Both the position numbers and the translations under genes were made by a program. DNA of 32,109 bases from an uncultured candidatus Brocadiaceae bacterium (GTDB taxonomy: Bacteria > Planctomycetota > Brocadiia > SM23-32). The stretch's first letter is position 1. Each line of letters starts with the position of its first letter. The stretch lies in assembly GCA_964534775.1 (NCBI GenBank), contig CAZHPE010000001.1, positions 33,009 to 65,117 of the forward strand. Direction: 5' to 3'. Shown here piece after piece: positions 2,638 to 32,024 of this stretch. The notes beneath the pieces are model-generated. The model did no database searches, was not told where the DNA came from, and saw nothing but the letters and a program-made list of their open reading frames with translations.

Positions 2638-2666
2638 TTGACGCATTCTGCGCCGCCCGGTAGGCT
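2638..2666 (+). promoter_or_regulatory. Putative sigma70 promoter for the DUF362 gene
   Basis: TTGACG-N17-TAGGCT, 46 bp upstream of ATG 2713. Confidence 0.6.
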
Positions 2667-2712
2667 CTATCGCTTGCATTTCGAGAGAACAGGGGACGTC
2701 TGGAGGCTGGGC

Positions 2713-9487: not shown

Positions 9488-9533
9488 AATCCCGACCTTC
9501 CCTGCACGCCTCGCTCTTCCCCCACGCGTGCAA

Positions 9534-10100
9534 TCACTGTTCGTCCGCGGCATCCGCCGTCATGGACTCGCCCCCGCCATCGTCGCCCATGATGTCCAGC
9601 GTGGTCCAGCCGAGAAAGAAATCGGCGAGTTCCGCGAAGTGGCAGTTCAATGTGATGCCTACCCACCCCAGGTGCAGCAGCTTCGGACAGTTGAGCAACT
9701 CGTGCTTCGGAATGCTCGTCCCCTTGACCACCGGGATGATGCCCACCTGCCACGGTTCGGGCGAGTTCGGGTCTTCCCAGTCGACATCCTCGTATCCGAG
9801 CTGCTCGCTTCCCTTCAGGAGGATCCCGCCAGCCTTATGGCGCATCGGCAGCGCGCCGGCATCCCTATGCGCGATGCCAAGAAGCGTGCCGTCTACATTA
9901 GAGTACCCGAGCGACACGACGTTGACGAATCCCGCGTATAGAGACAGTTGGGGCTTCTTCGAGACCGTGATGCCGAACTCCATGAAGTCGAGCGCGTCGT
10001 TACCCCTCTTCTGCATGTAACTGCATCCGGTGCTGCTGAAGAGCAATGCGCTCAACAGGACGACGCCAGCCGCACACACAACAAACCTATTAGCCATCAT
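9534..10100 (-). CDS. Hypothetical lipoprotein
   Basis: Basic N-terminus, hydrophobic stretch and lipobox STG-C (MMANRFVVCAAGVVLLSALLFSSTGC). Lies 46 bp upstream of the radical SAM gene on the same strand. Confidence 0.75.
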   Translation of the reverse strand: MMANRFVVCAAGVVLLSALLFSSTGCSYMQKRGNDALDFMEFGITVSKKPQLSLYAGFVNVVSLGYSNVDGTLLGIAHRDAGALPMRHKAGGILLKGSEQLGYEDVDWEDPNSPEPWQVGIIPVVKGTSIPKHELLNCPKLLHLGWVGITLNCHFAELADFFLGWTTLDIMGDDGGGESMTADAADEQ

Positions 10101-13853: not shown

Positions 13854-13855
13854 GC

Positions 13856-17205: not shown

Positions 17206-18555
17206 TCACCCGGACCCGTAGATCGAGCCTTCCGCGTGCGGGAATATGCGGTCGTCCTCGTGCTCCATGGCCACGTCCAGATTATCGAACACTTTGTGGA
17301 AGGCCTTGACGTAGAGCTTCATCTGCCGGAGCATGTTGGGCGGATGGATGCCGTGGACGACCGTGTAGCTCTCGCACAGCGCCTGGGCGACCGGATAGTC
17401 GTCCGGGTTGTAGGGCTGGTCGGAGCGTTTCCTTTTCTTCATCTTCCCCTTGTACTTGTCGCAGTCCCACGGGCACCCGGTCTTCGCGTAGCCCCACATC
17501 GTCTGAAACAGGTCCTGCGCCGGCACGGGCATGGTCTGCCACTGGCCTATCGCAAGGCCCTCCTTGTAGAGCGCCTTCTCGACGGCCGTGCGGAACTGGG
17601 CCGGGCTCGCCTTCACGCCGGCCTTCGTCGGGTCGAAGCGCACGTTATACATGAAGTAGACGTGCGTCTGCTTCGGCGGCACGTACGGGGGTATGACGCC
17701 GGGGATCTTGCCGAGTTCTTCGGTCAGATAGGCCGCGTTCGCCTGGCGCCGGGCGTTGAGGCGGTCCAGCTTGTGAAGCTGCGCCCGCGCGAAGGCGGCC
17801 GGGAGCTCCTGCGTGCGGTACATGTAGCCGAGGATGCTCGCATTGTAAACGCGCAACTGGCTCTCGTCGTCCACCTCGTCGCCGAACATGCGCACGAGGC
17901 CGGCCCGGTGGGCCCAGGTCTCGTCATCGGTCACCAGCAGGCCGCCTTCGCCGCCGCAGAGGTTCTTCAGGTTGTTCAGGCTGAAGCACGCCATGTCCCC
18001 GATAGATCCCGACACCTTGCCCTTGTAGGTTGCGCCGTGGGCCTGCGCGGCGTCCTCGATGACGACTATGTTGTGTTTCCTCGCGATGCGCACGATCTTG
18101 TCCATGTCGGCCATCAGGCCCTGGATGTGCGGCACGACGATCGCTTTGGTCCGCCGCGTGATGGATGCCTCGATCTTCCTCGGGTCCATGTTGTAGGTGC
18201 GCGGGTCGATGTCGACGAACACCGGCACGGCGTTCTGGTGCAGCGCGCAACTGGCCGAGGCCAGGAACGTGAAGGCGGAGGTAATGACCTCAGAGCCCGG
18301 CCCCACCTGCGCCGCCGCCAGCGCCATCTGAAGCGCCGCCGTGCCGCTGTTGGTGGCCAGGCAGAACTTCCGACCGCAGTACTTCGCCCATTCCTTCTCC
18401 AGCTTCACAGCCTCCGGTGCGGTGCCGCCGGCCACGACGCCGCGCTCCAGCACCCGAAGGACGGCCTTCCGGTCCGTCGCGTCCAGAACCGGCCAATTCC
18501 TGATAGTGCCCTTGGGCACCGCGGGCCTGCCGCCCGCCACTGCCAGTCTTGCCAT
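17206..18555 (-). CDS. DegT/DnrJ/EryC1/StrS family PLP-dependent sugar/cyclitol aminotransferase
   Basis: LAVAGG, NSGTAAL, FTFLAS, PVFVDID, IEDAAQAHGA, FSLNNLKNL..GEGG, GYMYR. Confidence 0.93.
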   Translation of the reverse strand: MARLAVAGGRPAVPKGTIRNWPVLDATDRKAVLRVLERGVVAGGTAPEAVKLEKEWAKYCGRKFCLATNSGTAALQMALAAAQVGPGSEVITSAFTFLASASCALHQNAVPVFVDIDPRTYNMDPRKIEASITRRTKAIVVPHIQGLMADMDKIVRIARKHNIVVIEDAAQAHGATYKGKVSGSIGDMACFSLNNLKNLCGGEGGLLVTDDETWAHRAGLVRMFGDEVDDESQLRVYNASILGYMYRTQELPAAFARAQLHKLDRLNARRQANAAYLTEELGKIPGVIPPYVPPKQTHVYFMYNVRFDPTKAGVKASPAQFRTAVEKALYKEGLAIGQWQTMPVPAQDLFQTMWGYAKTGCPWDCDKYKGKMKKRKRSDQPYNPDDYPVAQALCESYTVVHGIHPPNMLRQMKLYVKAFHKVFDNLDVAMEHEDDRIFPHAEGSIYGSG

Positions 18556-18593
18556 CTTCTCAATCTCCCGAAAGCTTGGGACAGATAGTGGGT

Positions 18594-19901
18594 TCAGTGC
18601 GTCGCCTTCGCGTTGAGCCGCCTCAAGAGCGCCAGGGCGTGCTCCGCGATGATGTCCTCGGCGTGCGCATCCAGTTGACCGGACCCCGGCCGCGTGGCGT
18701 AGCCGCCCTCTTCGATCGCGCGGGCCGTGGGAACGTAGCCGAACGATCCGTTGGCGAGGTCGACGATGAACGTGTGCTCGATGGGGCTCGCGCGCTTGAT
18801 CTGCAGGCCGATCTCCGTGAACAACTCCCCGGGATAGCTCACGAACGCCGCGCCCCCCAGCGTGAAGCCGACCATATCGAGTTCGTAGTTGTCAATGCCG
18901 TTGTCCGCCAGTTCCACGCACATCCGCGCGTATATCTCGTCATCGATGCCGTCGCGGATGTTCACAACGTGCTCACCCGTTTCGGCGGCGATCTTGCGGG
19001 CCCACTTCAGGTAATCCGGGTCGATCGTGCGTTTGGCCACCGGATAACTCGTGCGCACCGCAGCGGCCAGGTCGCATGCCGGCCGTATGTCTTTGGCCAC
19101 GCTCAGCACCTCACGGGCCAGCCACGTGCCCTTGCGCTCCACCCCATCCCAGTCGCGCTCGCGGAAGGCGGGGATGTCCACGCTGCCCTGCGCGCCGTTG
19201 GTGAACAGGGCCACGCCTCCCAACTCTCCCTCGATCATGGCGGAGGCGAAGGCGGGATAGTCGCCGCTGAGTTCGAACCAGGTGCCCGGCGGCGTGTTCG
19301 GGTGGCCGGCGTGGTTGTAGATTACGGCGATGGTGGGGCCGTCCACGGCGTCGATGCGCACGACGCCCACCTCCGGATCGGCCGGCCCGGCCGGGCCCAG
19401 AATGTCGTCCCAGGGGAAATCCTCCCAGTTCATCATGATCGTGCCGTCTTTTCGCCAGAGCCGGCGGCACTCGCTGATGGTGAACTCCTGCCCCGAGCCG
19501 GAGCCCGCGAGGGCCGGCGCGGCGTTGTGCCGGGCCTCTGCGACGAGGTGCGCGAGCTTATCCACCAGCCACGCGTTGTACTCCGTCTCGCGCGGGCAGA
19601 GAAACCCGCGGGTCGCCGGGCCGGAATGGACGTGCGCGCAGGCGATGAGCTGCCTCTCGGGCCGGATGCCGGCCGCGTCCGAGATGGCGGCGCGAATTTC
19701 GGCGACCGTATCCTCCCAGAGCCCGCAGATCTCCGCACTCACCAGCGCGAAAGGCCCGTCTGCGCCCTCCACGACCAGCGCGCGCGCCGAGAGGGGATCG
19801 TGCACGCCCTCGCTCTTGCGGTCCCGCGGGTTCCCGTCCATCCACACCGGGTAATCCGGCGTGATGTCGGTCTTCGCCGCTCCGGCCTTCAGCTTCGACA
19901 T
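18594..19901 (-). CDS. Neutral/alkaline ceramidase-like amidohydrolase
   Basis: AGAAKTDITP, VHDPLSARAL, AHVHSGP, NHAGHP, SGDYP, NGAQG, PGELFTEIG, GYVPT...GGY. Confidence 0.8.
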   Translation of the reverse strand: MSKLKAGAAKTDITPDYPVWMDGNPRDRKSEGVHDPLSARALVVEGADGPFALVSAEICGLWEDTVAEIRAAISDAAGIRPERQLIACAHVHSGPATRGFLCPRETEYNAWLVDKLAHLVAEARHNAAPALAGSGSGQEFTISECRRLWRKDGTIMMNWEDFPWDDILGPAGPADPEVGVVRIDAVDGPTIAVIYNHAGHPNTPPGTWFELSGDYPAFASAMIEGELGGVALFTNGAQGSVDIPAFRERDWDGVERKGTWLAREVLSVAKDIRPACDLAAAVRTSYPVAKRTIDPDYLKWARKIAAETGEHVVNIRDGIDDEIYARMCVELADNGIDNYELDMVGFTLGGAAFVSYPGELFTEIGLQIKRASPIEHTFIVDLANGSFGYVPTARAIEEGGYATRPGSGQLDAHAEDIIAEHALALLRRLNAKATH

Positions 19902-20006
19902 TTCCTCTCCCTTTCCCGTGGCAATCACGGTCGTGTTTTGCGCCTGGGTCCTTCGTTGCCAAGAGCGCGCCTCGGCGGGCGTAGTTCGGGCGGGCGGACC
20001 AGCCGG

Positions 20007-21200
20007 TCAGGATCGGGCGAAAACAACCTTGCCGCGGATGATCGTTGTCTCGACCTGCATGTTCTCGTCCGCGATGCAGATGTCGGCGTCCTTGCCCGCT
20101 TCCAGGCTACCCTTTCGCCGGTTTGCACGGATGAGGCGCGCCGGGTTCAGCGTGGCCATCTGGACGGCCTGGCACAGGGGCAGCTCGGCCATGCGTGACA
20201 TGTTGATCACGCCCTTGTTGAGCGTCAGCAGGCTGCCTGACAGCCCCAGCGTGTCCGCGGTCCTGCACGAGACGCCGTCGGAGACGACCGGCATTCCGGG
20301 CGCGAACTCGTACCTGCCCGGCGGCATGCCAGCGGCCTTTGTGCTGTCGGTGACGATCACGAGCCGGTCCACGCCCTTGGCGCGCACCGCGAGCTTCATG
20401 AGCAGCGGCTGCACGTGGATGCCGTCCACGATGAGCTCGGCGCACAGACGGTCCTCGCACAGGATCAGGTCCGCCAGCGCCGGCCACTCGGTGCCCGGCT
20501 CCACCTCCGGCGAGCGGGGCCGCATGGCGTCGTAGAGGTGGATGACGTGGCTGGCGCCCGCATCGACCGCTTTCGCGAACACCTTTGCGTCCGCTTCCGA
20601 GTGCCCGATCGCTGCCACGACGCGATTCGCCGCCAGCCTCTTGATGAACCCGATCGCCCCCTTCAACTCCGGCGAGAGCGTGACTATCTTGACGATCCCC
20701 TTCCCCAGGCGGATCAACCGCTCCTGTGCCTGCGCCGAGGGGACGGCGAGGTGTCTTCCCGGGAACGCGCCGTATGCGGGATGGAAGTACGGTCCCTCCA
20801 GGTGCACGCCGAGGATCTGCGCGCCGTCGTAAGAGTCCCGGGCCGCGGCCCTCACCTCATCGAGGCATTCTCTCAGCTCCTGCTCGCCCAGGCAGCCGAG
20901 CGTCGGCAGGAACCCGGTCACGCCGTAGCGGATCAGGTTGCGCCGGATGTTCAGGACCGCCTCGGCGCCCTCATTGGCGTTGGTGCCGCACATGCCGTGA
21001 ATATGCGTCCCGATCAACCCCGGCAGGACCTTCTTGCCGTGCGCCGATATCCTGCGAGCCCCCTTCGGGACGGTCACTTTCCGGGCAGGACCGACCGCGG
21101 CGATCTTCCCGCCCTTGAGTACCACGCGCCCGGACCGGATGGTCTCCAGCGGTGTGATGACCTCGCCGCCGCTGATTACGAGCAGGTCGCCCTTGGCCAT
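20007..21200 (-). CDS. nagA: N-acetylglucosamine-6-phosphate deacetylase family amidohydrolase
   Basis: PGLIGTHIHG, GVTGFLPTL, HLEGPY, IGHS, HLYDAM, IVDGIH, VTDS, LSGS, NPA, GKDAD. The exact substrate is uncertain. Confidence 0.82.
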   Translation of the reverse strand: MAKGDLLVISGGEVITPLETIRSGRVVLKGGKIAAVGPARKVTVPKGARRISAHGKKVLPGLIGTHIHGMCGTNANEGAEAVLNIRRNLIRYGVTGFLPTLGCLGEQELRECLDEVRAAARDSYDGAQILGVHLEGPYFHPAYGAFPGRHLAVPSAQAQERLIRLGKGIVKIVTLSPELKGAIGFIKRLAANRVVAAIGHSEADAKVFAKAVDAGASHVIHLYDAMRPRSPEVEPGTEWPALADLILCEDRLCAELIVDGIHVQPLLMKLAVRAKGVDRLVIVTDSTKAAGMPPGRYEFAPGMPVVSDGVSCRTADTLGLSGSLLTLNKGVINMSRMAELPLCQAVQMATLNPARLIRANRRKGSLEAGKDADICIADENMQVETTIIRGKVVFARS

Positions 21201-21221
21201 GTAACGGTCACCTCCCCTTGC

Positions 21222-21998
21222 TCACTTGCACGTGCGGCCGGCGTCCACGGGCAGGTTCACGCCCGTGATGTAGGCCGCGGCGTCGCTGGCCAGGAACACG
21301 ATCGCGCCCTTCAGGTCGTTGTCGCCCGCCATGCGGCCGAGGCACGTGCTCTTCTCGTAGCGCCACAGGAACCCCTGCTCTTGGTCGGTGAAGTAACCGC
21401 CCGGCGAGATGGTGTTGCATCGCACCCCGCGCGCTCCGTAGTGGGCGGCCACATAGCGTGTGAGGTTGATCATGCCGGCCTTGTGGAAGAAGTAGTCCGG
21501 CGGCTGGGGCCAGCCAACTTCCTCGTAGATCCAGAGGTCTGGCCCGACCATCCCGAAGATCGAGCTGATGTTGATGATGCTGCCGCGCCCGGCATCCCCC
21601 ATCTTCTCGGCGAAGGCCCGCGTGACCAGAAACAGGCCGGTGGCGTTGACCTCCATGCTCTCTTTCCACGTCTCGACGGGATCGGTCCAGGCTTTCATAG
21701 GCCGGAGCACGGAGTTGTTCACGAGCACGTCCAATTGCCCCGCCTGATCGTAGATCGTGTCGCGAAGGGCGAGGATGGATTCTTCCTCGGCGAGGTCGAA
21801 CTGAAGCGCCGTCACGTCCAGGCCCCGGGCGCGCTCCTGCTCGGCCACTTCCTCCAGGGCCGCCAGGTTGCGCGAGGCCACGAAGGTCTTTGCGCCAGCC
21901 TCCGCGACCCCCGCGACGATCTGCCGCCCGTACAGGCCCGCCCCGCCCGTCACGAGCGCGACTTTCCCTTCGAGGGAAAAGCTCTCCATAACGTTCAT
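21222..21998 (-). CDS. Short-chain dehydrogenase/reductase (SDR)
   Basis: LVTGGAGLYG, LVNNS, NISSIFG, YFFHK (YxxxK), RCNTISPGG; ATGA overlap with the upstream aldolase. Confidence 0.92.
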   Translation of the reverse strand: MNVMESFSLEGKVALVTGGAGLYGRQIVAGVAEAGAKTFVASRNLAALEEVAEQERARGLDVTALQFDLAEEESILALRDTIYDQAGQLDVLVNNSVLRPMKAWTDPVETWKESMEVNATGLFLVTRAFAEKMGDAGRGSIINISSIFGMVGPDLWIYEEVGWPQPPDYFFHKAGMINLTRYVAAHYGARGVRCNTISPGGYFTDQEQGFLWRYEKSTCLGRMAGDNDLKGAIVFLASDAAAYITGVNLPVDAGRTCK

Positions 21999-22798
21999 GT
22001 CGCCGAGTCCTTTCCCGCTGGAATCAAACCGGTTTTGGCAACGGTCTCGATCACGCCGTCGAAATACTTCCAGAGGCCCACCACGTCCGCGCAGACGTTC
22101 AGGAACCGGTAGCCCATCTCCCACATCTTCGGCACGTCCGCCGGGGCGCACACGGTGCCCGCGAACTTGCCGTGCCTAGCGGCGGCCTCGACGACGGCCG
22201 CGCGGGCGTCCGCTATCTCCGGAGCGTCCCACTGCCCGAGCTTGCCGATGCCGTGGGAGAAGTCGCCCGGGCCGTACAGCAGCATGTCGTAGCCCGGCAC
22301 CGCCGCGATCTCGTCCAGCTCTTCGAGCGGCTCGGGGTCCTCAATCTGGAACACGATGAAGCGCTCCCGGTTCGCCTGCTCGGTGTAGGTGAGCGGGTCG
22401 ATCTTGCAGAAGAAGCCGTCGAGGTTCCCGCCGTCGAGCGGCCGCCGGCCGACGGGATGGAACCGCGTCATGCGCACGACCTCGCGGGCCTGCTGCGCGC
22501 TCAGGATGTGCGGCACCATGATGCCCGTCGCGTCCATCTCGAGCGGGCGGATGTAGTCGGAGTAGCTCCCCCGGCAGACGCGGACCATCGCGTCGACGTC
22601 GTGGAGCTTCGCCGCGCGCACTTGGTTCTCCAGGGGGATCCAGTCGGTCGGCACGTGCTCGTTGCAGAGCCAGATACAGTCGAAACCGCTCGACGCCGCG
22701 ATCTCGACCATGCGCGGGTCGGCGGAGTTGATCTTCGCGCCGATCGCCAGGCGTCCTTCGCGCAGCTTTCGCAGAACCCGGCTCGGTCTCATTTCCAT
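21995..22798 (-). CDS. HpcH/HpaI family aldolase
   Basis: FDCIWLCNEHVP, MVRV, GIMVPHI, FHPVGRR, FQIED, GPGDFS. Confidence 0.9.
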   Translation of the reverse strand: MEMRPSRVLRKLREGRLAIGAKINSADPRMVEIAASSGFDCIWLCNEHVPTDWIPLENQVRAAKLHDVDAMVRVCRGSYSDYIRPLEMDATGIMVPHILSAQQAREVVRMTRFHPVGRRPLDGGNLDGFFCKIDPLTYTEQANRERFIVFQIEDPEPLEELDEIAAVPGYDMLLYGPGDFSHGIGKLGQWDAPEIADARAAVVEAAARHGKFAGTVCAPADVPKMWEMGYRFLNVCADVVGLWKYFDGVIETVAKTGLIPAGKDSAT

Positions 22799-22819
22799 AC
22801 GCTTTCTCCTCGGTGGCCC

Positions 22820-23278
22820 CTACGAGGCGCCCTCGGGCGCCTGCTTCCTCACGTCCTTTATCACCACGCTGCACCGGGCCCTGTGGCACTCGGATCTGTC
22901 GGGTATGTGCTTGAAGCCCAGGGGGTCGAGGACGCGCTGGTAGAGCACGTCGCAGTGGCCGCAGTAGTCGTGGTACGGTTCGATGTGGGTCAGCTCCAGC
23001 AGGAGTCCCTTCGAGGGGCAGTGGTGCATGTTGATCCGGAACTCGCCCGCCTCCTCGTCCAACGCCATCGTAAAGTCGGCGGCCTCCTCGTTGAGCGTGT
23101 GGGTCCAGTAGAGCCAGCAGCCGCGTATGCCGTGCTCTGTCACAAGGTCGCGCAGGTTGCCCAGGAAGGTGTCGGAGAGATAGTTCCAGAAATCGACGAC
23201 GGCCTCCGTGCCGCCCTCCTGCTCCAGGAACTTGAACAACTCGGAATACGCCGGGATGAAGTCCGTGCAAGGTATCAT
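22820..23278 (-). CDS. Hypothetical Cys/His-rich small protein, possibly V4R/ATC-hydrolase-like fold
   Basis: GGAGG RBS 5 nt before ATG 23278; MHHCPSKG...DYCGHC...ECHRARC. The fold assignment is inference. Confidence 0.75.
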   Translation of the reverse strand: MIPCTDFIPAYSELFKFLEQEGGTEAVVDFWNYLSDTFLGNLRDLVTEHGIRGCWLYWTHTLNEEAADFTMALDEEAGEFRINMHHCPSKGLLLELTHIEPYHDYCGHCDVLYQRVLDPLGFKHIPDRSECHRARCSVVIKDVRKQAPEGAS

Positions 23279-23280
23279 GG

Positions 23281-23742
23281 TCACCTCCGATAGAACCGCA
23301 CGACGGAGCGCCCCGTCCCCTCATCGTACTCGGGCATCTCCGCGGCGAACGGAGTTCCCTCGCAGAGGGCTTCGTTGACCGTTCCGGTCGTTTCGCGCCA
23401 GAGCCGGGCCACGTGGTATCCGTGCTCGCGCATGTGCATGACGGCGGGGCAGGCCTCGACCTCTATGACCAGTTCGTCCTCGGACAGCCGCGTCTTGACC
23501 TTGCCGCCCTCGAGCTCGTAGATATTCTCAAAATGCTCCTTGATGGCCTTGAGGCCATGTTCCTTCACGGCCTCGATGAGGGGCGCGTAGAAGGCGGCGG
23601 TGAACTGGCGCAGATACCGTTGGACGGCCCCTTCGCCGAAGTGCTCGTGCACGTACTCGACGCCCCGGCTCAAGGCCCCGTGGAAGTCCTTGTGCAGATA
23701 CGCATTGTCCGAGGCCCGCCTCCGCATCACTTCCTTAGGCAT
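23281..23742 (-). CDS. Hypothetical small protein, possibly V4R/ATC-hydrolase-like fold
   Basis: Overlaps the DHDPS-like stop by 8 bp; LHKDFHG, FGEGAV..YL, EVEACPAV, C-terminal RSVVRF. Length and layout resemble the neighbouring gene. Confidence 0.75.
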   Translation of the reverse strand: MPKEVMRRRASDNAYLHKDFHGALSRGVEYVHEHFGEGAVQRYLRQFTAAFYAPLIEAVKEHGLKAIKEHFENIYELEGGKVKTRLSEDELVIEVEACPAVMHMREHGYHVARLWRETTGTVNEALCEGTPFAAEMPEYDEGTGRSVVRFYRR

Positions 23743-24685
23743 GGCTTTCCCCTTTACGCGGCATCAACACGTCGACATCCCGCTCCAGCACGCGCGCAAT
23801 GGCCTTGACGCATGAGGCCGTGAGCGGGTAATCCGGGAAGTTCTTCCACGTCCGGAAGACCCCCATCTCGACCAGGAGCTTCTTCTCGCCCGAGAGCCAG
23901 CACGTGAGCTTCTTGCCGCCGTATACGGCGAACATGATGCGGCTCATGCGCCTCTGAAGGCGCTCTACGAGGGCAAAGTCGCCCGCCTGCGCGGCCGCGA
24001 CAATCATGTTCGCCAGGTAGCCGTTGAACACCCCGCCGCCGAGCAGCAGCCCGTTGTAGCCCGCCTTCATGTAGACGTCGCACTGCCACTCGTTCCCGTT
24101 CAGAAGCCGCAGGGCGGGGCGTTTGCGCCTCGCAGCCAGGGCGATCTTGCAGCGCCCGGGGTCCGACGAACTGTCCTTGACCAGGATGACTTTCTTCTCG
24201 GCATATATTTTGCCCAGGTCCGCGTTGCTCACGGCGAAGCCGTTTGTGCCCGGCCGGTCGTAGATGCCCACTGGCAGGGGGCTCTTGCGGATGGCCTCCT
24301 GGTAGAGGCCCAGCATCTTGCCGGCCATCAACGGGAACGGAAAATAGGGGGGTGCGATGACGGCGATGTCGGCCCCGTCCCCCTTGACAACGCGCGCGTT
24401 CTCAAGGATTCGGGCGGCCGAATTGTCCGTCACCTGGACGGCGATCGGCAGCCGGCCCTTCGCGCACCTGACCACGGTGCTGACAAGCACGCGCCGGTGC
24501 TCGTCCGTCATCCAGGGACCCTCGCCGTTCGTCCCCGCCAGGAACAGCCCCTTCACGCCGAGGCGCAGGTGGTGCTCGACCATTCGCCTGACCGCCACCG
24601 TGTCCACTTGCATCCGGTCCGTGAACGGCGTCGGCGCTGCGGACCAGACGCCCGAAAGCCTTTCAGCCGCAAACTTTGATCCCAT
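23735..24685 (-). CDS. DHDPS/NanA family class I aldolase/lyase
   Basis: APTPF, GLFLAGTNGEG, APPYF, GIYDRP (catalytic Tyr), VKDSS (Schiff-base Lys). Alternative start at 24691. Confidence 0.9.
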   Translation of the reverse strand: MGSKFAAERLSGVWSAAPTPFTDRMQVDTVAVRRMVEHHLRLGVKGLFLAGTNGEGPWMTDEHRRVLVSTVVRCAKGRLPIAVQVTDNSAARILENARVVKGDGADIAVIAPPYFPFPLMAGKMLGLYQEAIRKSPLPVGIYDRPGTNGFAVSNADLGKIYAEKKVILVKDSSSDPGRCKIALAARRKRPALRLLNGNEWQCDVYMKAGYNGLLLGGGVFNGYLANMIVAAAQAGDFALVERLQRRMSRIMFAVYGGKKLTCWLSGEKKLLVEMGVFRTWKNFPDYPLTASCVKAIARVLERDVDVLMPRKGESHA

Positions 24686-24737
24686 TGTCATCCTGCCTTG
24701 AAGGGTATGCCAACCGGCCCCGTCCCTGGTTCGCGAG

Positions 24738-24766
24738 AGTCTATCAGATAGGGAATGATCCCACAA
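24738..24766 (-). promoter_or_regulatory. Candidate promoter for the 13-gene minus-strand cluster
   Basis: TTGTGG-N17-TAGACT with TGn, overlapped by the palindrome CTATC-A-GATAG (24741-24751). Confidence 0.4.
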
Positions 24767-24786
24767 AAGCCCGCCCATTTGGCGGG
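24763..24786 (-). terminator. Terminator-like hairpin in the divergent intergenic region
   Basis: Minus strand CCCGCC-AAATG-GGCGGG followed by CTTTTGT. Confidence 0.35.
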
Positions 24787-24828
24787 GGCGCGCGCCACCG
24801 GCGTCGTCGATCCGGGACGCACTATGGT

Positions 24829-24856
24829 AGAATATCACATCCGGCGTGGTTTTCAA
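24829..24856 (-). promoter_or_regulatory. Second candidate minus-strand promoter
   Basis: TTGAAA-N16-TATTCT with TGn; it overlaps a plus-strand TGG-TAGAAT (24825-24833). Confidence 0.4.
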
Positions 24857-24897
24857 TGGGATGAGCCCGCTTCGTCGCCGCCGCGTCCGGCTCGTTA

Positions 24898-24926
24898 TTG
24901 ACAGACGCGCGCCGGGGCCATACATT
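24898..24926 (+). promoter_or_regulatory. sigma70 promoter for the isomerase-RLP-kinase operon
   Basis: TTGACA-N17-TACATT. Confidence 0.7.
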
Positions 24927-25051
24927 GCTTGTCGAACGTCCGCCGTGCGGCGCGCGGCGGGCAGGACGGGCGATGGCAGGCGCAGTGCGTGCGTTCGGCG
25001 TGCGACGTTCAGTGTCAGGTTTTTTCCGCTACCAGGTAGGAGGTCTTCACC

Positions 25052-26773
25052 ATGGCCAAGGCACAGATGCTTTCGGCACCCGCGGATGCAGCGGTCAACG
25101 CGGTGACGTTCGGCGTATGCTCGGCGGCTGATCCGCGCATCCCTCCGGAGGCGCGCGAGCGCTGCGTCAACATCGTCCGGATGGCTGCCGAGACCATCGC
25201 GAAGGGCGTGAAGATACCCGACGGTCGGCCCGTGAACGTCGTCTGGACGGACGTGGTGGTCGGCGGCGAGCGGGACGCGGACGTCGTCGCGCGGCAGTTC
25301 CGCGAGGCATGCGTCGACGCCGTGGTCGTCACGCCCGATACCTGGGCGTTCCCGCAGCCCACGCTCATGAGCCTGTTCAGCCACCTTCCCAAGGACATCC
25401 CCATCAACATCACCTGCGGCAATAACGGCTCCAAGCCCGGGATGGTCTACTCCCACGGCGTGAACGGTGCGCTGGCGCAGGGCGGCCGTCTGACGACGCT
25501 TAACGTGGGCGACTGGCTGGCGACGGGCCAGAAGCCGAGGATGACGCCCGAAACGGCCGAGGCGCTCATCGACTGGTGCTACGGCGCGCTGGCGGCCGCG
25601 GGCCTGAAAGGGCGGCGCGTGGTGATTTTCGGCCACGACTCCATGGGCATCGAGACCTGCCTGGCCCACGTGATACCCACGCGCAATACCTTCGGGATCG
25701 AGATCACGCGCCTGGACATGAAGCTCCTGGGCGACATGCTGACCGGCGGCGCGTACGACAAGAAGGAGGTCAAGGCGCTGCGGGCGTGGTTCAACCGGTA
25801 CGTCGGGGACCGCATCGAGTTGCGCGATGAGGCCGACGACGAGAAGTTCGACCTCTCGCTGGCGATGTACCTCATCGTGCGCGACATCATGGACGATCTG
25901 GACGCGGTCGGTGGCGGCTTCCAGAGCCAGCTCGAATGGGGCTCCGACCCCCGCTGCGTGCCGATGCCCGTGGCCGACCCGATGGAGAGCCTGTTCAACG
26001 CCACCTTCGATCACCGCGGGCGCAAGGCGCCCGTGCCTTACGCGACCGAGTCCGACGCGCAGGGCGTCCTGACGATGCTGGTCATGACCTGGCTCACGGG
26101 CGGCAATCCCCCGCTGTTCATGGACTTCCGGAAGGTCTGGGAGCCGTGGGAGATCAAGCTCGCGTGCGAGAAGCTCGAGGTCCCCTGCACGGGCGACGAG
26201 CCGTGGATGGAGAAGGGGTTTGTGGACGGCGAGAACTCCGGCTCCGCCAGCCTCAACTGGGCGGCCGCGCCCGGCGCCTCCGTCAGCGAGTGCATGAACG
26301 GGGTCTCGATGGGGGCGGCCGGTAGGTGGTATGAGTTCGCCGGCGGCGGGAACAACGTGCGGTTCGTCTCGCCCGGCGGCATAGAGGGCATAGCGGCCCG
26401 GCTGAGCTACAGCGACCTGACCGGCATGTTCTCGCTCCTGTGGGACGAGGCCTACAGCGTCGATCTGCCCCCCGAGCTGGCCGAGGTTGTCTGCAACGCC
26501 TCAACCTACACCTGGCCGCACTCCTTCCTGGTGCCCAAGTACGCGACCATGAAGGAGTACAAGCAGTACGCGCCGACCAACCACTCCCACATGACGTGGA
26601 ACCTGCCGCCGGCCCGGCTGGAGCACTGGATGGACCTGACCCAGGTGCTCTCGGAGACGCCCTGGGCGGCGCGGGATGCGTGGATCGACGGCGTGGACAG
26701 GCCGCTGCCGCTGCTCTACCTCCTCAACGGCGGCGAGAACAATGCCAAGCTGAAGCTGGCCGGGAAGGCGTAG
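25052..26773 (+). CDS. L-fucose/D-arabinose isomerase family protein
   Basis: AGGAGG RBS; DPRI, TWAFP, DSMGI, GFQSQLEW, and candidate Mn ligands in ATESDAQG (Glu), FMDFR (Asp), TWPH and PTNH (His). Confidence 0.88.
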   Translation: MAKAQMLSAPADAAVNAVTFGVCSAADPRIPPEARERCVNIVRMAAETIAKGVKIPDGRPVNVVWTDVVVGGERDADVVARQFREACVDAVVVTPDTWAFPQPTLMSLFSHLPKDIPINITCGNNGSKPGMVYSHGVNGALAQGGRLTTLNVGDWLATGQKPRMTPETAEALIDWCYGALAAAGLKGRRVVIFGHDSMGIETCLAHVIPTRNTFGIEITRLDMKLLGDMLTGGAYDKKEVKALRAWFNRYVGDRIELRDEADDEKFDLSLAMYLIVRDIMDDLDAVGGGFQSQLEWGSDPRCVPMPVADPMESLFNATFDHRGRKAPVPYATESDAQGVLTMLVMTWLTGGNPPLFMDFRKVWEPWEIKLACEKLEVPCTGDEPWMEKGFVDGENSGSASLNWAAAPGASVSECMNGVSMGAAGRWYEFAGGGNNVRFVSPGGIEGIAARLSYSDLTGMFSLLWDEAYSVDLPPELAEVVCNASTYTWPHSFLVPKYATMKEYKQYAPTNHSHMTWNLPPARLEHWMDLTQVLSETPWAARDAWIDGVDRPLPLLYLLNGGENNAKLKLAGKA

Positions 26774-26885: not shown

Positions 26886-28235
26886 ATGTACACGCGTTAC
26901 TACTATCCGGAGATATTCGAACAGACGCTCGACGGCATCGACCGCAGCACGCACATAATGGCGACGTATTACGTGGCCGACGAGCTGGCGGGCGAGGACT
27001 TTATCGAGCACTTCTCGCTGATTCAGGCCATGGTCCTCGAGGGTTCGACGGGAACCTGGCAGGACGTGCCGGATCATACGCTGGAGGTCCGCCAGCGGCT
27101 GTGCGGCAAGATGGTGGGCTATTACGAGGTCCCCACCGACAGCCCATACAAGCGCGCTGCGGTGGTGCAGCTCGCCTTCCCGATAGATGCCTGGACCGAC
27201 AATGTGCCGATGATGCTTCTTAGCATCGCAGGCAACTGCTTCGCGTTCAGCAAGGGGCTGCGCCTCCTGGACGTGTTCATTCCGGAGAAGTTGCTGGCGA
27301 ACTTCAAGGGCCCGAAGTTCGGCGTGCCGGGCATTCGCGAGCTGATGGGCGAGCAGGAGCGGCCCTTCTCTCTCCACATCATCAAGCCGAAGATGGGCAT
27401 GACGCCCAAGCAGCTCGCCAAGCAGTGCTACGAGACGGCGATGGGCGGGGTGGACATGATCAAAGACGACGAGATGACCAGCGACGTCTACAACTCGAGC
27501 TACGATGACCGCCTAAAGGCCGTGCTGGAGGCCCTGGACAAGGCCGAGACGAAGACCGGCAAGCGGGTCATCTACTACCTGAGCATCACTGACGAGCCGC
27601 GTCGCATCTTCGATAAGGCGGCGAGGGCCGTCGAGCTCGGCGCGCGCGGCCTTCTGATCTGCTACTCGGCGGGCCTGCCGGTCCTTCGCCAGATTGCGGA
27701 GGACCCGGCGATCAATGTGCCGATACTGTTCCACGGCTCGCACATGATCGCCGCCACGCCCACCATCTCATGGCCGGTCTTCGCCAAACTCGCCCGGCTG
27801 TGCGGCGCCGACCTGATGCTCACACCCACGTACTGGTCGAGCATTCCGATGGTGAGCCTGGAGGAAGGCATCCGCACCGCACACATAAAGCTCGCGCCTC
27901 TGGGCCACATCAAGCCCATGTGGCCGATGCCCTGCGCGGGCATCTACCCGGGGCTGATGCCCATACTGGTCGGGGAGTACGGGCCGGACATCATCGTCCC
28001 GGCCGGCGGCGGCATGCTGGGGCATCCGGACGGTTACCGGGCCGGTGCGGCGTCCTGGCAGCAGGCGATAAGCGCGACCATGTCCGACGAGCACATCGCC
28101 GAGTACGCGAAACGAGCCGAGAACAAGGAGCTGCGGCGTGCGCTGGAGCACTGGGGCCACATCGAACGCCCCAAGACCCCCTGGCTGCGCGTGGCCCCGA
28201 AGTTCCACCCGAAGAAGATGACCTTCGACGAGTGA
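26886..28235 (+). CDS. RuBisCO-like protein (form IV, non-carboxylating)
   Basis: EGSTGTW, AGN, GPKFG..GIR, IKPKMG, DMIKDDE, LFH, ARLCGAD, GGGMLGHPDG..AGA. It lacks the HR arginine, the H327 equivalent and the loop-6 GK. No small subunit or phosphoribulokinase lies nearby. Confidence 0.93.
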   Translation: MYTRYYYPEIFEQTLDGIDRSTHIMATYYVADELAGEDFIEHFSLIQAMVLEGSTGTWQDVPDHTLEVRQRLCGKMVGYYEVPTDSPYKRAAVVQLAFPIDAWTDNVPMMLLSIAGNCFAFSKGLRLLDVFIPEKLLANFKGPKFGVPGIRELMGEQERPFSLHIIKPKMGMTPKQLAKQCYETAMGGVDMIKDDEMTSDVYNSSYDDRLKAVLEALDKAETKTGKRVIYYLSITDEPRRIFDKAARAVELGARGLLICYSAGLPVLRQIAEDPAINVPILFHGSHMIAATPTISWPVFAKLARLCGADLMLTPTYWSSIPMVSLEEGIRTAHIKLAPLGHIKPMWPMPCAGIYPGLMPILVGEYGPDIIVPAGGGMLGHPDGYRAGAASWQQAISATMSDEHIAEYAKRAENKELRRALEHWGHIERPKTPWLRVAPKFHPKKMTFDE

Positions 28236-28259
28236 TCGTCACAGGAGAGGTTGGCAGCA

Positions 28260-29744
28260 ATGGCGAGACGCCGCTTTCTCGCATTCGATCTGGGGGCCGA
28301 GAGCGGGCGCGCCGTCGTCGGCACGCTCGAAGGCGGCCGGCTCGCGCTCGATGAGATCCACCGGTTCCCGAACGAACCGGTCGAGTTGTGCGGCACGCTA
28401 CACTGGGACGTGCTGAGCCTCTTCAGGAACGTGCTGGCGGGAATGAGGGCGTACGTCGAGCGTTTCGGCGACTCGGTGGACGGGATCGGAATCGACACCT
28501 GGGGCGTGGACTTCGGCCTCCTGGCGGCGGACGGGGCGTTGCTTCAGAACCCGGTGCATTACCGCGACCGGCGCACCGACGGCATGCTGGAAGAGTTGCA
28601 GCGGCGGATCGCCCCGCAAGAGTTATATGAGAAGACCGGGCTGCCCCAGTCGCCCGTTCATACCGTCTGCCAACTGCTCTCCATGCGCCGGAAGCGCAGC
28701 CCGATCCTCGAGTCCGCCGCCACGCTCCTCATGATGCCCGACCTGTTCGCGTACTTCCTGACGGGCGAGAAGCGCTGCGAACGTACCGAGGCCGTCAGCA
28801 GCCAGCTCTATGATCCGCGAAGCGGCGAATGGCACAAGGGCGTCTTCGAGGCCCTCGATCTGCCGCTTTCCATCATGCCGGAGCTTGTGGACCCCGGCAC
28901 CGTCCTGGGGGAGCTTAGCCAGTCGGTCAAACGCGAAACCGGCCTCAAGGAAGCGCCCGTGATTGCCGCGTGCACGCATGATACGGCGGCGGCCGTCGCG
29001 GCCGTACCGGGCAGGGGCGATGGCTGGGCCTTCCTGAGTTCCGGCACGTGGTCCGTTCCGGGGGCGCTCACCGCCGAGGTCGTGACCTCCGAGGGGGCCC
29101 TGGCGGCCGGGATGCTCAACGAACTGACGCTCGGGAGCACGTTCCTGTGTCGCAACATCCTGGGCCTGTGGCTCCTCCAGCAGGCGCGCGCCGTGTGGCA
29201 GCGGGGCGGCGAGGATTATTCGTATGCCGACCTCGTCAGCCTGGCGGAAGGCGCGCCCGAAGGCGGCGCCCTGGTGCACATCGACGACGCCGCTTTCCTG
29301 GCGCCGGAGGACATGTGCCGGGCCATCCGGGACTACTGCAAGCGCACCGGGCAGCCGCAGCCGGAGGGGCCAGCCGAGATTTCGCGCTGCATCCTGGAGA
29401 GCCTCGCCCTGTGCTATCGCCGCGCGCTGGATCAGCTCAAGGCCATCCTCGGGCGGGATTTCGACGTTATGCACGTTGTAGGCGGCGGCTCTCTCAACAC
29501 GCTCCTGTGCCGGCTCACGGCCGATGCGACGGGCATTCCGGTTCTTGCCGGGCCGGTCGAGACGGCCGTCGCGGGAAACGTTCTCGTGCAGGCTTATGCC
29601 CGCGGCTTTCTCGGCTCGCCTCAGGAGATTCGCGACGTCGTCCGCGAGTCGTCCGAACTGGTCGAATATGAACCCCACGACGCCGCGCGGTGGGACGAGC
29701 GCTACGGCCGGTATGTCGAGCTGGCCGACGGGCGGCACGGATAG
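28260..29744 (+). CDS. FGGY carbohydrate kinase, rhamnulokinase/fuculokinase-like
   Basis: AFDLGAESGR, HRFPN, GIDTWGVDF, HYRDRRT, MPDL, HDTA, SSGTWS, NILGLWLLQ, ESLAL, VGGGS, AGPVE, GN. Confidence 0.92.
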   Translation: MARRRFLAFDLGAESGRAVVGTLEGGRLALDEIHRFPNEPVELCGTLHWDVLSLFRNVLAGMRAYVERFGDSVDGIGIDTWGVDFGLLAADGALLQNPVHYRDRRTDGMLEELQRRIAPQELYEKTGLPQSPVHTVCQLLSMRRKRSPILESAATLLMMPDLFAYFLTGEKRCERTEAVSSQLYDPRSGEWHKGVFEALDLPLSIMPELVDPGTVLGELSQSVKRETGLKEAPVIAACTHDTAAAVAAVPGRGDGWAFLSSGTWSVPGALTAEVVTSEGALAAGMLNELTLGSTFLCRNILGLWLLQQARAVWQRGGEDYSYADLVSLAEGAPEGGALVHIDDAAFLAPEDMCRAIRDYCKRTGQPQPEGPAEISRCILESLALCYRRALDQLKAILGRDFDVMHVVGGGSLNTLLCRLTADATGIPVLAGPVETAVAGNVLVQAYARGFLGSPQEIRDVVRESSELVEYEPHDAARWDERYGRYVELADGRHG

Positions 29745-29786: not shown

Positions 29787-30653
29787 TCAACGCGCCTTGC
29801 CGACGCTGCCGAACAGTTCCAGCTTCCCTTCGACATACCCCTCTATTCGCTTCATCGCCTCGGCAAGCGCCGGGCGGGGGTCGACATACTCCGGGCCCGC
29901 GCCGAGGCCGGCGCGGACGGCGTCCACGAAGGCCTTCCGCAGTCCGTGGGCCACGTTCACCTTCGCTATGCCCAGGCCGATGGCCGTGCGCATCTGCTCG
30001 TCCGGAATGCCCGTGCCACCGTGAAACACGAGGGGAATTGACACTCTCTGCGCAATTCGATCCAGCCGGTCGAAGTCCATCTCTATCTTCTTGGTGTCGA
30101 AGCAGCCGGAGATCGACCCGACGCTGACGGCCAGGAAGTCGATGCCGGACTTCTCGGCGAACTCTGCGGCCTCGTCAGGATCGGTCATCATCGCCTCGAT
30201 CTGCTCGGGGCTGGCGTTCGGGTCGCGGCTCACCTGCCCCAGTTCGCCTTCCACCGCCGCCCCAAGGGGCCTTGCGGCCGCGACGACCCGCTGCATGAGG
30301 GCGATGTTCTCCTCCAGCGGCAGGTGAGAGCCGTCCGCCATTACCGACGGAAACCCGAGCTTCAGACAGTCGACGATCAGATCAAGCGGCATCTCGCGCG
30401 AGCCGTGGTCCAGGTGAAAGGTCGCCGGGACGGCCGCCGCTTCAAGCGCCGAGAGGACCGAGCGGCAGAGCGACTCCTTCGCGTAGAAGTCGAAGTTTAT
30501 GAAGCTCGTCTGGATCATCACGGGCGAGCTGGTGCGTTCGCAGGCGCGCAGCACCCCTTCGAGCAGCTCGAGATTGAACACGTCGAATCCCGCGATGCAG
30601 TACCCGTCTGCCGCGGCGTCCTCGAGCATCTGCCTGGCCGGAACCAAAGGCAT
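29787..30653 (-). CDS. Class II fructose/tagatose-bisphosphate aldolase family protein (atypical metal site)
   Basis: SPVMIQ, FHLDHG, SVMADGS, VEGELG, TDPDEA, LAVSVGSISG, LVFHGGTG, KVN. Confidence 0.9.
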   Translation of the reverse strand: MPLVPARQMLEDAAADGYCIAGFDVFNLELLEGVLRACERTSSPVMIQTSFINFDFYAKESLCRSVLSALEAAAVPATFHLDHGSREMPLDLIVDCLKLGFPSVMADGSHLPLEENIALMQRVVAAARPLGAAVEGELGQVSRDPNASPEQIEAMMTDPDEAAEFAEKSGIDFLAVSVGSISGCFDTKKIEMDFDRLDRIAQRVSIPLVFHGGTGIPDEQMRTAIGLGIAKVNVAHGLRKAFVDAVRAGLGAGPEYVDPRPALAEAMKRIEGYVEGKLELFGSVGKAR

Positions 30654-30935: not shown

Positions 30936-32024
30936 ATGACGAGCAGAGAACGGGTCCTTGCCGTGTTTGAAGGGAAGCTGCCCGACCGGTGCCCGATCGA
31001 TTTCCAGGCGACCCCGGATGCCGAAGCCATGCTGACGGATGCGTTCGGCCTGAGCGACGCGGAGGCTCTGCGCGAGTACCTCGGCTGCGACATCCGGGTG
31101 GTCTCGCCGGTGCCGAAGCCGGCGAACCAGGGAGTGTTTGCGCGCCACCTGTTCGTCGAGGAGGCCGGACAGGGCAGGTGGCTCGATAACTGGGGCCTCA
31201 CGTGGCAGCGGGTGGAGGTGCCGGCGGGAGACGTCTTCTACGATGTCGTCGATGCGCCCCTCAAGGACGTTGCGGAAGTGGCCGAGGTCGAGGACTATCC
31301 GTTCCCGAAGCCGGGACAGGACTGGGATTTCTCCGGGTTGCAGGGCGAGGCTCTGCGGCATTCCGGCCGCGCGGTGGCCGGGCAGACGGCGGCGGTCTTC
31401 GACGATGCGTGGCGTCTGCTCGGCCTGGAGAAGATGTTCATCGACATCGCGCTCAGGCCCGAGCTTGTGCACGCCGTGCTCAGAAAGGTCTGCGACTACT
31501 GGCTCGAGTTCGCGCGGCTTGAGTTCGAGGCGGCCGCCGGCGCGCTCGACCTGATGTGGATATTCGACGATCTGGGCACCCAGAACGGGCTCGTCATCTC
31601 CCCGGAAACATGCCGGGAGTTCGTCCTGCCGCTGATCGGGGAGCGCGCGGCGCTTTGCCACAGATACGTGGCCAGGGCGATCCTGCACTGCTGCGGCGGC
31701 ATCGAGCCAGTTATCGAGGACATAATCGGCGCGGGGGTGGACGCGCTCAACCCCATCCAATCGGCCCCCCGGGGGATGGACCGGGGGCGGCTGAAGGCAA
31801 GGTATGGCGACCGGCTCGTCTTCCACGGTTCAGTGGACGAGCAGCGGGTGCTTGTGCCGGGCACGCCCGACGTCGTCGCGGCCGATACGCGGGAGTGTAT
31901 CGACACCCTCGGGGCGGGCGGCGGCTACATTGTGGCGGCCTCCCACAAGATCGAAACCGACATTTCCCCCGAGAACGTCAGAGCGATGTTCTTCACCGCC
32001 ATGGAGCACGGTCGCTACCCCTGA
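30936..32024 (+). CDS. Uroporphyrinogen decarboxylase / MtaA-CmuA methyltransferase family protein
   Basis: MTSRERV...PDRCP, DNWG, DDLGTQNG..ISPE, LHCCG, LNPIQ, FHGSVDEQ..L..GTP, GGGYI..SH. Confidence 0.88.
   Translation: MTSRERVLAVFEGKLPDRCPIDFQATPDAEAMLTDAFGLSDAEALREYLGCDIRVVSPVPKPANQGVFARHLFVEEAGQGRWLDNWGLTWQRVEVPAGDVFYDVVDAPLKDVAEVAEVEDYPFPKPGQDWDFSGLQGEALRHSGRAVAGQTAAVFDDAWRLLGLEKMFIDIALRPELVHAVLRKVCDYWLEFARLEFEAAAGALDLMWIFDDLGTQNGLVISPETCREFVLPLIGERAALCHRYVARAILHCCGGIEPVIEDIIGAGVDALNPIQSAPRGMDRGRLKARYGDRLVFHGSVDEQRVLVPGTPDVVAADTRECIDTLGAGGGYIVAASHKIETDISPENVRAMFFTAMEHGRYP

Follow-up and report, generated by a model that had tools for sequence, protein, structure and literature searches.

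Here we report the analysis of a RuBisCO-like protein (RLP) encoded in a 32,109-nucleotide (nt) stretch of DNA, hereafter the window, from an uncultured candidatus Brocadiaceae bacterium of the Planctomycetota (contig CAZHPE010000001.1 of assembly GCA_964534775.1, positions 33,009 to 65,117 of the forward strand). The RLP gene is a stop-free open reading frame (ORF) standing second in a putative three-gene operon, 112 nt after the gene for a FucI-like sugar isomerase and 15 nt before that for an FGGY-family kinase (Table 1). We established the fold, the active-site residue pattern, the clade membership and the synteny of the protein. We propose, as on balance probable, that it isomerises a 6-deoxy-L-ketohexose 1-phosphate ahead of a thiamine- and lipoyl-dependent cleavage, a scheme in which we infer the substrate, the reaction and the hand-over to the E1 and E2 components. 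The RLP clade to which the gene belongs is uncharacterised and probably marks a deoxy-sugar pathway not yet described.

The polysaccharides of algae and plants have fucose and rhamnose among their major sugars. To our knowledge, only a few functions of RLPs are known. Those described in the passages of PMC6302742 and PMC7325909 that we draw on include the MtnW enolase, the Rhodospirillum rubrum isomerase, a decarboxylase and a transcarboxylase of apiose pathways, and a part played in the degradation of four-carbon acid sugars.

Table 1. Coordinates in the window of the RLP gene, its active-site segments and the adjoining features
Feature	Position	Strand	Basis
Sigma-70-like promoter match	24898-24926	+	10/12 consensus matches; consensus match only
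FucI-like sugar isomerase, 573 residues, first gene of the putative operon	25052-26773	+	Pfam Fucose_iso_N1/N2/C
RuBisCO-like protein (form IV), 449 residues, the main finding	26886-28235	+	Pfam, alignments, structure model
T57-W58 (T65/W66), 1-phosphate site	27054-27059	+	117-row alignment; role from a passage of PMC3153676
K167, K169 (K175, K177) and K193-D195-E196 (K201, carbamate Lys; D203, E204, metal ligands)	27384-27473	+	Alignments
H283 (H294 kept), G284 (R295 lost), H286, M287 (H298 lost)	27732-27746	+	Alignments, model
L312 (H327 lost) to S319 (loop-6 K334 lost)	27819-27842	+	Alignments, model
C350-A351-G352 (S379 to Cys, G380 to Ala, G381 kept)	27933-27941	+	Alignments
G374-G375 (G403, G404), 1-phosphate site	28005-28010	+	Alignments
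Clade-specific C-terminal tail, residues 428-449	28167-28232	+	Kept in clade consensus, not in MtnW/OiaX rows
FGGY kinase, L-fuculokinase/L-rhamnulokinase-like	28251-29744	+	Pfam FGGY_N/C
Class II ketose-bisphosphate aldolase family gene, convergent	29787-30653	-	Pfam F_bP_aldolase 2.6e-78
URO-D/MtaA-like protein, recurrent clade neighbour	30936-32024	+	Pfam URO-D

The RLP gene and its putative operon

The start of the RLP gene was placed at ATG 26886, which occupies the same position as the N-termini of homologues of 447-449 residues and is preceded by a purine-rich stretch. A longer ORF from GTG 26793 found no support in those N-termini. The protein is a member of the RuBisCO large-subunit superfamily, having an N-terminal domain (RuBisCO_large_N, PF02788; 4.4e-09, 37 bits, cut-off 20.7) and a C-terminal TIM barrel (RuBisCO_large, PF00016; 5.3e-42, 144.5 bits, cut-off 30.1), both above the Pfam gathering thresholds. 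Its AlphaFold (AF2) model has a predicted local distance difference test (pLDDT) value of 92.6, and the top Foldseek matches of the model are Geobacillus MtnW structures (TM-scores 0.81-0.83 on the query and 0.89-0.92 on the target), with type III RuBisCO about equal.

Among proteins of solved structure the best relatives are likewise MtnW of Geobacillus and Bacillus (2oek, 8.5e-61, and 3.3e-59, respectively), closely followed by archaeal type III RuBisCOs (about 1e-55); the RLPs of Chlorobium and Rhodopseudomonas are remoter (1e-43 and 1e-38). The NCBIfam scores run in the same order, with the two MtnW models nearest (NF007095, 265 bits; TIGR03332, 221 bits) and type III RuBisCO next (218 bits), and all lie far under the curated cut-offs (409, 514 and 497 bits). 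The form II and large-subunit models are missed as well (108 against 489 and 219 against 438 bits). The gene is the sole RuBisCO-family gene of the host genome (3.13 Mb in 367 contigs, 92.7% complete), and this stretch of DNA was found in marine and seawater metagenomes of several studies. The tail of about 22 residues that closes the protein could be a lid or a partner-binding tail; confidence in the model is low there, with mean pLDDT values of 60 and 70 in its final two 10-residue blocks (residue 431 onwards).

Both flanking genes of the putative operon belong to sugar-enzyme families. FucK and RhaB phosphorylate C1 of their substrates, giving ketose 1-phosphates. The solved structures nearest to the FGGY kinase are those of L-fuculose kinase (4c23, 8.5e-95) and L-rhamnulose kinase (2cgj, 4.1e-89), and kinases of autoinducer-2, xylulose, glycerol and gluconate match it far more weakly; the nearest NCBIfam model, rhamnulokinase, gives 400 bits against a cut-off of 528. 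The FucI-like protein scores 142 bits with the NCBIfam L-fucose isomerase model (cut-off 775); among solved structures it is closest to D-arabinose isomerase (3a9r, 2.1e-33), followed by L-fucose isomerases (1.9e-26).

Active-site residues

Residues were mapped in a 117-row alignment, and the mapping was checked in a 60-row alignment and against the strands of the model. The reference was an annotated form I large subunit from an Afipia plasmid record (L034), on which what we take to be the spinach numbering was placed from its motifs; further references were an annotated MtnW (L033), an annotated OiaX (L035) and a Rhizobium RLP (L036). The 1-phosphate site is kept whole, its five residues T65, W66, G381, G403 and G404 corresponding to T57, W58, G352, G374 and G375. 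Also kept are E60 (E52), N123 (N117), K175 (K167), K177 (K169) and H294 (H283), together with the carbamate and metal residues K201, D203 and E204 (K193, D195 and E196); K167, K193, D195 and E196 are invariant across the 60 rows. At the three 5-phosphate positions, the non-polar residues Gly, Met and Leu are found instead (G284 for R295, M287 for H298, L312 for H327). Loop 6 has S319 and I320 in place of K334 and L335, and in the model it belongs to a coil that runs from strand 310-314 up to residue 324. The other replacements are T173 to I165, S379 to C350 and G380 to A351.

The H294 assignment required some care, the region being displaced by two columns in a small 13-row MAFFT alignment. 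H283 was accepted because its column is invariant in the 60 rows, which include type III RuBisCOs and MtnW, and because it closes the predicted strand 280-283 of the model, as H294 closes beta-5. A second histidine, H286, which is conserved in the clade consensus, stands one residue before the H298 position.

The loop-6 lysine K334 is needed for carboxylation. In the passages of PMC3153676 that concern ribulose 1,5-bisphosphate (RuBP), its 1-phosphate is held by the side chain of T65 (and W66 in the open state) and the backbone of G381, G403 and G404, and its 5-phosphate by R295 and H327 (and H298 in the open state); a passage of PMC5786004 counts K334 among the active-site residues. An earlier note, which had aligned the protein by eye with form I RuBisCO, had named R295 and H327 as the 5-phosphate ligands, in agreement with the first of these sources. 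Every residue that it had called kept or lost was reproduced in the 13-, 60- and 117-row alignments and in the model, and G284, L312 and S319 stand where formal alignment might have brought out equivalents of R295, H327 and K334. By its residues, the RLP keeps the carbamylated-lysine/Mg2+ centre, the residues for removal of the C3 proton and formation of a 2,3-enediolate, and the C1-phosphate pocket.

Because the 1-phosphate site is kept and the 5-phosphate site and K334 are lost, the residue pattern supports a substrate mono-phosphorylated at C1, without a distal phosphate, and an enzyme without carboxylation. The earlier note had drawn both conclusions. The FGGY kinase next door strengthens the first, and the second gains from the scores below the type III and form II cut-offs and from the placement in an RLP clade. 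Such a 1-phosphate-only site is usual among RLPs and is not special to this clade. The note had further suggested a distinct subfamily, and a separate clade was indeed found; the reason it had offered, loss of K334 together with the Ser-to-Cys change, does not define that clade, because all eight MtnW rows lack R295, H327 and K334 too and the cysteine is not universal. In the 12 rows with the clade signature the S379 position holds Cys in nine, Ala in two and Gly in one.

A separate RLP clade

A word-indexed search returned 812 relatives, of which the best 120 have 67-98% identity at 92-100% coverage; counted among 90%-identity clusters, no fewer than 120 relatives are close to full length and reach 67% identity or above. 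They come from soil, freshwater and marine bacteria of many phyla, and their names are only automatic ones, either 'DK-MTP-1-P enolase' or 'RuBisCO large subunit C-terminal-like domain-containing protein'. Searched exhaustively with HMMER, the 50%-identity representatives gave 1828 relatives, 213 of them at 1e-30 or below. When 102 full-length representatives were labelled with NCBIfam, seven lay above an MtnW cut-off, three above that of the type III equivalog and three more above that of the large-subunit subfamily; the nearest seven representatives had no NCBIfam family match at E<=1e-100. Cluster look-ups of ten sister representatives likewise gave no characterised names, only automatic ones.

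Trees were built with FastTree from the 117 rows and with IQ-TREE (LG+G4) from the 60 rows; the R. rubrum RLP was not among the rows of the alignments or trees. The query falls in a clade of nine rows with a Shimodaira-Hasegawa-like approximate likelihood ratio test (SH-aLRT) support of 100, which widens to 11, 12 and 15 rows (99 each). The MtnW equivalogs form a clade of their own (100) inside a separate 25-row clade (98), and the OiaX group and the type III rows are more distant. P0123 and P0127-P0129, the outer rows among the 15, have other residues at positions 295, 327, 334 and 379, and P0127-P0129 retain K334.

At the level of sequence, the clade is set apart from MtnW by retention of E60, N123 and K177. 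At the first of these MtnW has Gly, at the second the 14 rows of its clade uniformly have Lys, and at the third the eight MtnW rows have Val, Gly, Ile, Glu or Thr. The whole set of enolisation residues is kept in few other RLP rows of the 117-row alignment. A literature search, supplements excluded, brought up no paper dealing with this clade, nor one that describes an RLP partnered by FGGY or E1/E2; in a passage of PMC7325909, an RLP of an actinobacterium stands beside epimerase-like and DeoR genes, with no function assigned there.

Conserved neighbourhood in related loci

The gene neighbourhood was compared in 29 related loci whose RLPs are 51-98% identical to the query. By the labels of the metagenome-assembled genomes they come from Acidobacteriota, Planctomycetota, Armatimonadota, Omnitrophota, Verrucomicrobiota, Lentisphaerota-type bacteria, Clostridia, Actinomycetota, Chloroflexota and Latescibacterota. 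In total, 173 neighbour ORFs were scanned against Pfam, and neighbours were counted by tblastn in the 25 loci that have 4 kb or more of flank on one side. The most frequent same-strand neighbours are the alpha subunit of a pyruvate dehydrogenase (PDH)-type E1 (E1alpha; 18 of the 25 loci, within 7 kb), E2 and a xylose-isomerase-like TIM protein (16 each), and E1beta (15). URO-D-like genes are found within 7 kb in 13 loci, an RpiR regulator in 10, an FGGY kinase in nine, a class II aldolase/adducin gene in four (L005, L007, L023 and L024), and a RhaM mutarotase (L008 and L020) and a corrinoid protein in two each. With the window and the short loci included, FGGY kinases lie within 7 kb in 12/30 loci, and in 10/30, the window among them, an orthologue starts less than 200 nt downstream of the RLP gene.

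The E2 gene begins 24-132 nt after the RLP gene in six loci (L005, L007, L008, L012, L015 and L023), and in L008 a run of ten genes on one strand encodes an FGGY kinase, the isomerase, RhaM, two URO-D-like proteins, a corrinoid protein, the RLP, E2, E1alpha and E1beta. The best solved relative of the TIM protein is a 333-residue 'xylose isomerase' (3ktc, 2.8e-62), followed by xylose and L-rhamnose isomerases; judged by homology, it is probably the aldose-ketose isomerase of those RLP operons that contain its gene.

The E1alpha, E1beta and E2 proteins linked to the RLP share every Pfam domain, the lipoyl lysine and the catalytic histidine with the heterotetrameric E1 and E2 of pyruvate and acetoin dehydrogenases, and E1beta scores above the cut-off of the PDH E1beta subfamily (325 against 321 bits). 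They differ from these dehydrogenases in that E1alpha lies under its equivalog cut-off (352 against 394 bits) and E2 far under the NCBIfam cut-offs, E1beta forms its own clade, and the genes are embedded in sugar operons, also in anaerobes. The lipoyl-lysine and catalytic-histidine motifs are present in 14/14 E2s, drawn from loci L005-L028 and contig C3 of the host genome, and in 13 of the 14 the catalytic motif has Asn for the usual Asp, which is found only in L028.

The FBA-type aldolase gene that converges on the window operon was rejected as a conserved partner, since none of the 29 related loci has a homologue at E<=1e-10. Its product scores 231 bits with NCBIfam TIGR00167, above the cut-off of 215.6.

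Host genome and related genomes

The window contig ends 887 nt beyond the window, and E1/E2 genes and the TIM-isomerase gene were sought elsewhere in the host genome. A TIM-isomerase orthologue is encoded on contig C163 (75-78% identity), and an E2-E1alpha-E1beta set on contig C3, beside a protein with weak alpha-L-fucosidase and GHL6 matches. The C3 E1beta branches within the clade of the RLP-linked sequences (SH-aLRT 99), and four other host paralogues fall elsewhere. MtnA is encoded on contig C74 (443 bits against a cut-off of 279); for MtnB this 92.7%-complete genome gave nothing above cut-off, and MtnK and MtnX were not found.

At E<=1e-60 the RLP was found in 7/41 related genomes, representing 6/31 genera. 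Among those whose flanks were seen, two genomes of the same family have the arrangement RLP-isomerase-E2, and RLP-kinase occurs in one genome from the family and in another from the class. A mobile cassette is suggested by this patchy distribution and the 75-80% identity across phyla.

Proposed function

The FucI-like isomerase and the FGGY kinase would supply L-fuculose-1-phosphate or L-rhamnulose-1-phosphate, and one of these is the most likely substrate of the RLP, because the neighbouring isomerase and kinase, by homology, make a 6-deoxy-L-ketohexose 1-phosphate. The RLP would bind the ketose by its C1 phosphate and remove the C3 proton to give a 2,3-enediolate, and reprotonation would then either move the carbonyl or epimerise a centre. 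This step would take the place held by a class II aldolase in the textbook fucose and rhamnose pathways. The product would probably be cleaved by the thiamine diphosphate-dependent E1, and the acyl group passed to lipoamide and coenzyme A (CoA).

As a possible but doubtful extension, the clade and its linked E1/E2 would form an aldolase-free and lactaldehyde-free route for L-fucose and L-rhamnose in which the carbonyl moves from C2 to C4. L-fuculose-1-phosphate and L-rhamnulose-1-phosphate differ at C4 alone. A carbonyl at C4 would therefore erase the sole differing stereocentre and bring both sugars to one product, and so could account for the occurrence of one RLP beside FucI-like genes in some loci and RhaI-like/RhaM genes in others. 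E1 cleavage next to the new carbonyl would give glyceraldehyde-3-phosphate and a lactyl group for transfer to CoA; alternatively, a carbonyl reaching C5 would lead to acetyl-CoA and a tetrose phosphate. In some operons, a corrinoid and URO-D-like methyltransferase set may first remove O-methyl groups from methylated deoxy-sugars.

Several observations weigh against the proposed isomerisation of a deoxy-hexose phosphate. The E1/E2 and TIM-isomerase genes are not adjacent to the RLP gene in the window, and the contig ends shortly after, so that linkage here rests on orthology to other loci. The assignment to deoxy-hexoses is indirect, because the partners that point to them are infrequent: FGGY kinases are near the RLP in just 12/30 loci, RhaM in two, and a FucI-like gene is found, outside the window, only in L029, a near-identical record. 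H286, beside the H298 position, might contact a distal group of the substrate. The E1/E2 could be an ordinary pyruvate dehydrogenase acting on downstream pyruvate, E1beta being above and E1alpha below its cut-off. Furthermore, the literature search found no biochemistry on any clade member, and, with MtnA in the host genome, methylthioribulose-1-phosphate can be made and is a possible alternative substrate.

The RLP of R. rubrum belongs to what is presumably the IV-DeepYkrW clade, and its partner is a cupin methylsulfurylase; the partners of the RLP studied here are an isomerase and a kinase of free sugars and a PDH-like complex. As described in part of PMC6302742, it is a 5-methylthio-D-ribulose-1-phosphate 1,3-isomerase that moves a carbonyl by successive proton transfers; its substrate is a ketose 1-phosphate whose far end is non-polar, and no other RLP offers as good a mechanistic analogue for the proposed reaction. 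The window RLP could by the same token be a 1,3-isomerase of 5-methylthio- or 5-deoxy-D-ribulose-1-phosphate that salvages by-products of S-adenosylmethionine and has no part in sugar catabolism. Such a role would fit the 1-phosphate-only active site and the presence of MtnA, and in the 5-deoxy case the product would be 1-deoxyxylulose-5-phosphate, from which cleavage by a PDH-like E1/E2 could yield acetyl-CoA and glyceraldehyde-3-phosphate, so that the E1/E2 linkage would suit it as well. We nevertheless consider it quite unlikely, given that MtnA lies on another contig (with class II aldolase-like matches on C113 and C24), that no cupin-family protein was seen in the Pfam listings of the 173 neighbour ORFs, and that the conserved neighbours are enzymes of free sugars (aldose-ketose isomerases, a fuculokinase/rhamnulokinase-like kinase, RhaM and glycoside hydrolases) and RpiR/DeoR regulators.

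If the enediolate were instead reprotonated on its other face, the RLP would be a ketose-1-phosphate 3-epimerase, and an aldolase, perhaps the convergent class II enzyme, would split its product; the E1/E2 linkage elsewhere would then reflect only downstream pyruvate or acetoin metabolism. The convergent gene lies 43 nt past the kinase gene on the opposite strand, four related loci have class II aldolase/adducin genes, and most RLPs are viewed as isomerases or epimerases in a statement quoted in PMC7325909. The orientation of the convergent gene and its absence from all 29 related loci, the same-strand E1alpha in most of the 25 loci and the frequent position of E2 directly after the RLP all speak against this reading, and a 3-epimerase is in our estimate unlikely.

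Automatic annotation names the clade after the 2,3-diketo-5-methylthiopentyl-1-phosphate enolase of methionine salvage. MtnW/YkrW (IV-YkrW; PDB 2OEK, 2OEM, 2ZVI and 4NAS) is the closest known protein in sequence (about 32% identity) and fold, gives the best NCBIfam, PDB and Foldseek matches, and lends its name to many homologues in JGI. It has in common with the RLP the K175, K201, D203, E204 and H294 core, the 1-phosphate site, the losses of R295, H298, H327 and K334 (Pro, Ser/Ala, Leu and Ser in the eight MtnW rows), the G380-to-Ala change and a substrate phosphorylated at C1 only. The label nevertheless does not survive three tests of membership, and an MtnW function is very improbable: both equivalog models score the protein far below their cut-offs, and the RLP clade is separate from the MtnW clade (SH-aLRT 99-100). 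Asn117 stands at the N123 position, where 8/8 MtnW rows and 14/14 rows of its clade have the lysine (Lys98) that we take to be the catalytic base of MtnW. Unlike MtnW, the RLP also has E60, K177, the Cys at S379 and the C-terminal tail, and its context is one of sugar isomerase, kinase and E1/E2: MtnA, MtnB, MtnK and MtnX were not seen in the window or in the neighbourhoods of relatives, and in the host genome only MtnA scored above cut-off or was found, as noted above.

A carboxylase, decarboxylase or transcarboxylase, whether a genuine RuBisCO or an enzyme like OiaX/OiaT with a beta-keto acid phosphate as substrate, is the least probable of the functions considered. Type III RuBisCO is as close as MtnW in fold and nearly so in sequence, and with E60, T65, W66, N123, K175, K177, K201, D203, E204 and H294 in common with it the RLP is more RuBisCO-like than most RLP rows; its URO-D-family neighbours could in principle be decarboxylases. 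Type III enzymes, which fix CO2, keep R295, H298, H327, K334 and S379, whereas in the RLP K334 is Ser and the 5-phosphate site is gone. The scores with the type III and form II models, and with that for the apiose-pathway RLP OiaX (136 against 700 bits), are all far below cut-off; the protein lies outside the OiaX clade, and no DUF1537-type acid-sugar kinase was seen in the neighbour listings.

The isomerisation of a deoxy-hexose phosphate ahead of E1/E2 cleavage would relate to the textbook FucI-FucK-FucA and RhaA-RhaB-RhaD pathways as follows. Homologues of their isomerase and C1-kinase flank the RLP in the window, and relatives add RhaM and the isomerase-like TIM protein. Unlike in those pathways, the RLP would replace or precede the class II aldolase step, and the E1/E2 found in relatives imply a different carbon-carbon cleavage. 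If the proposal is true, an RLP with a thiamine/lipoyl complex in place of an aldolase would be a new piece of carbohydrate catabolism, near-complete RuBisCO enolisation machinery would have been reused on a mono-phosphate, and the aldolase-free route would save a thioester that is lost in the textbook pathway. The clade is widespread and has no assigned function, and the one phosphate site left in this member, with the fucose/rhamnose-type isomerase and kinase beside it, points to an undescribed step of deoxy-sugar breakdown.

Other features of the window and of related loci

URO-D/MtaA-like genes recur beside the RLP gene. The one in the window scores 71 bits with the NCBIfam MtaA/CmuA family, under its cut-off. 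Two stand with a corrinoid (B12-binding) protein in L008 (3642-6828), and in L028 (4674-6482) such a gene is fused to a corrinoid domain; the set resembles a three-component methyltransferase and may be an O-demethylase for methylated sugars. In the host genome, one URO-D-like tblastn query matched more than 20 contigs of the 3.1 Mb, an unusual expansion of the family.

Two further loci have neighbours of other kinds. Upstream of the RLP gene in L013 (779-4361) lie genes for a remote FGGY-like kinase and for a transketolase divided into its N and C halves, an arrangement that resembles the transketolase route for apiose, and downstream of it in L026 (12576-14177) is an apiosidase-like glycoside hydrolase gene.

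In the window, a run of minus-strand genes (17206-24700), divergent from the RLP operon, encodes a DegT-type aminotransferase, a NagA-like deacetylase, an SDR protein, an HpcH-type aldolase and a DHDPS/NanA-like lyase, which suggests amino-sugar or sugar-acid catabolism. A 759-residue ORF (23735-26014, minus strand) matches DHDPS/NanA-like lyases in no more than its last 320 or so residues (about 23735-24700); the remainder overlaps the FucI-like gene on the opposite strand, and the ORF is for the most part a false extension. An 815-residue ORF at 11517-13964 (minus strand) joins Amidohydro_2 and class III aminotransferase domains, which are encoded by separate genes near the RLP in L012, L015, L020 and L023. 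Two further genes are unrelated to the RLP, namely those for a radical SAM protein with an HMPTM-type zinc ribbon (7964-9553, minus strand) and a DUF362 protein with 4Fe-4S domains (2638-3798, plus strand).

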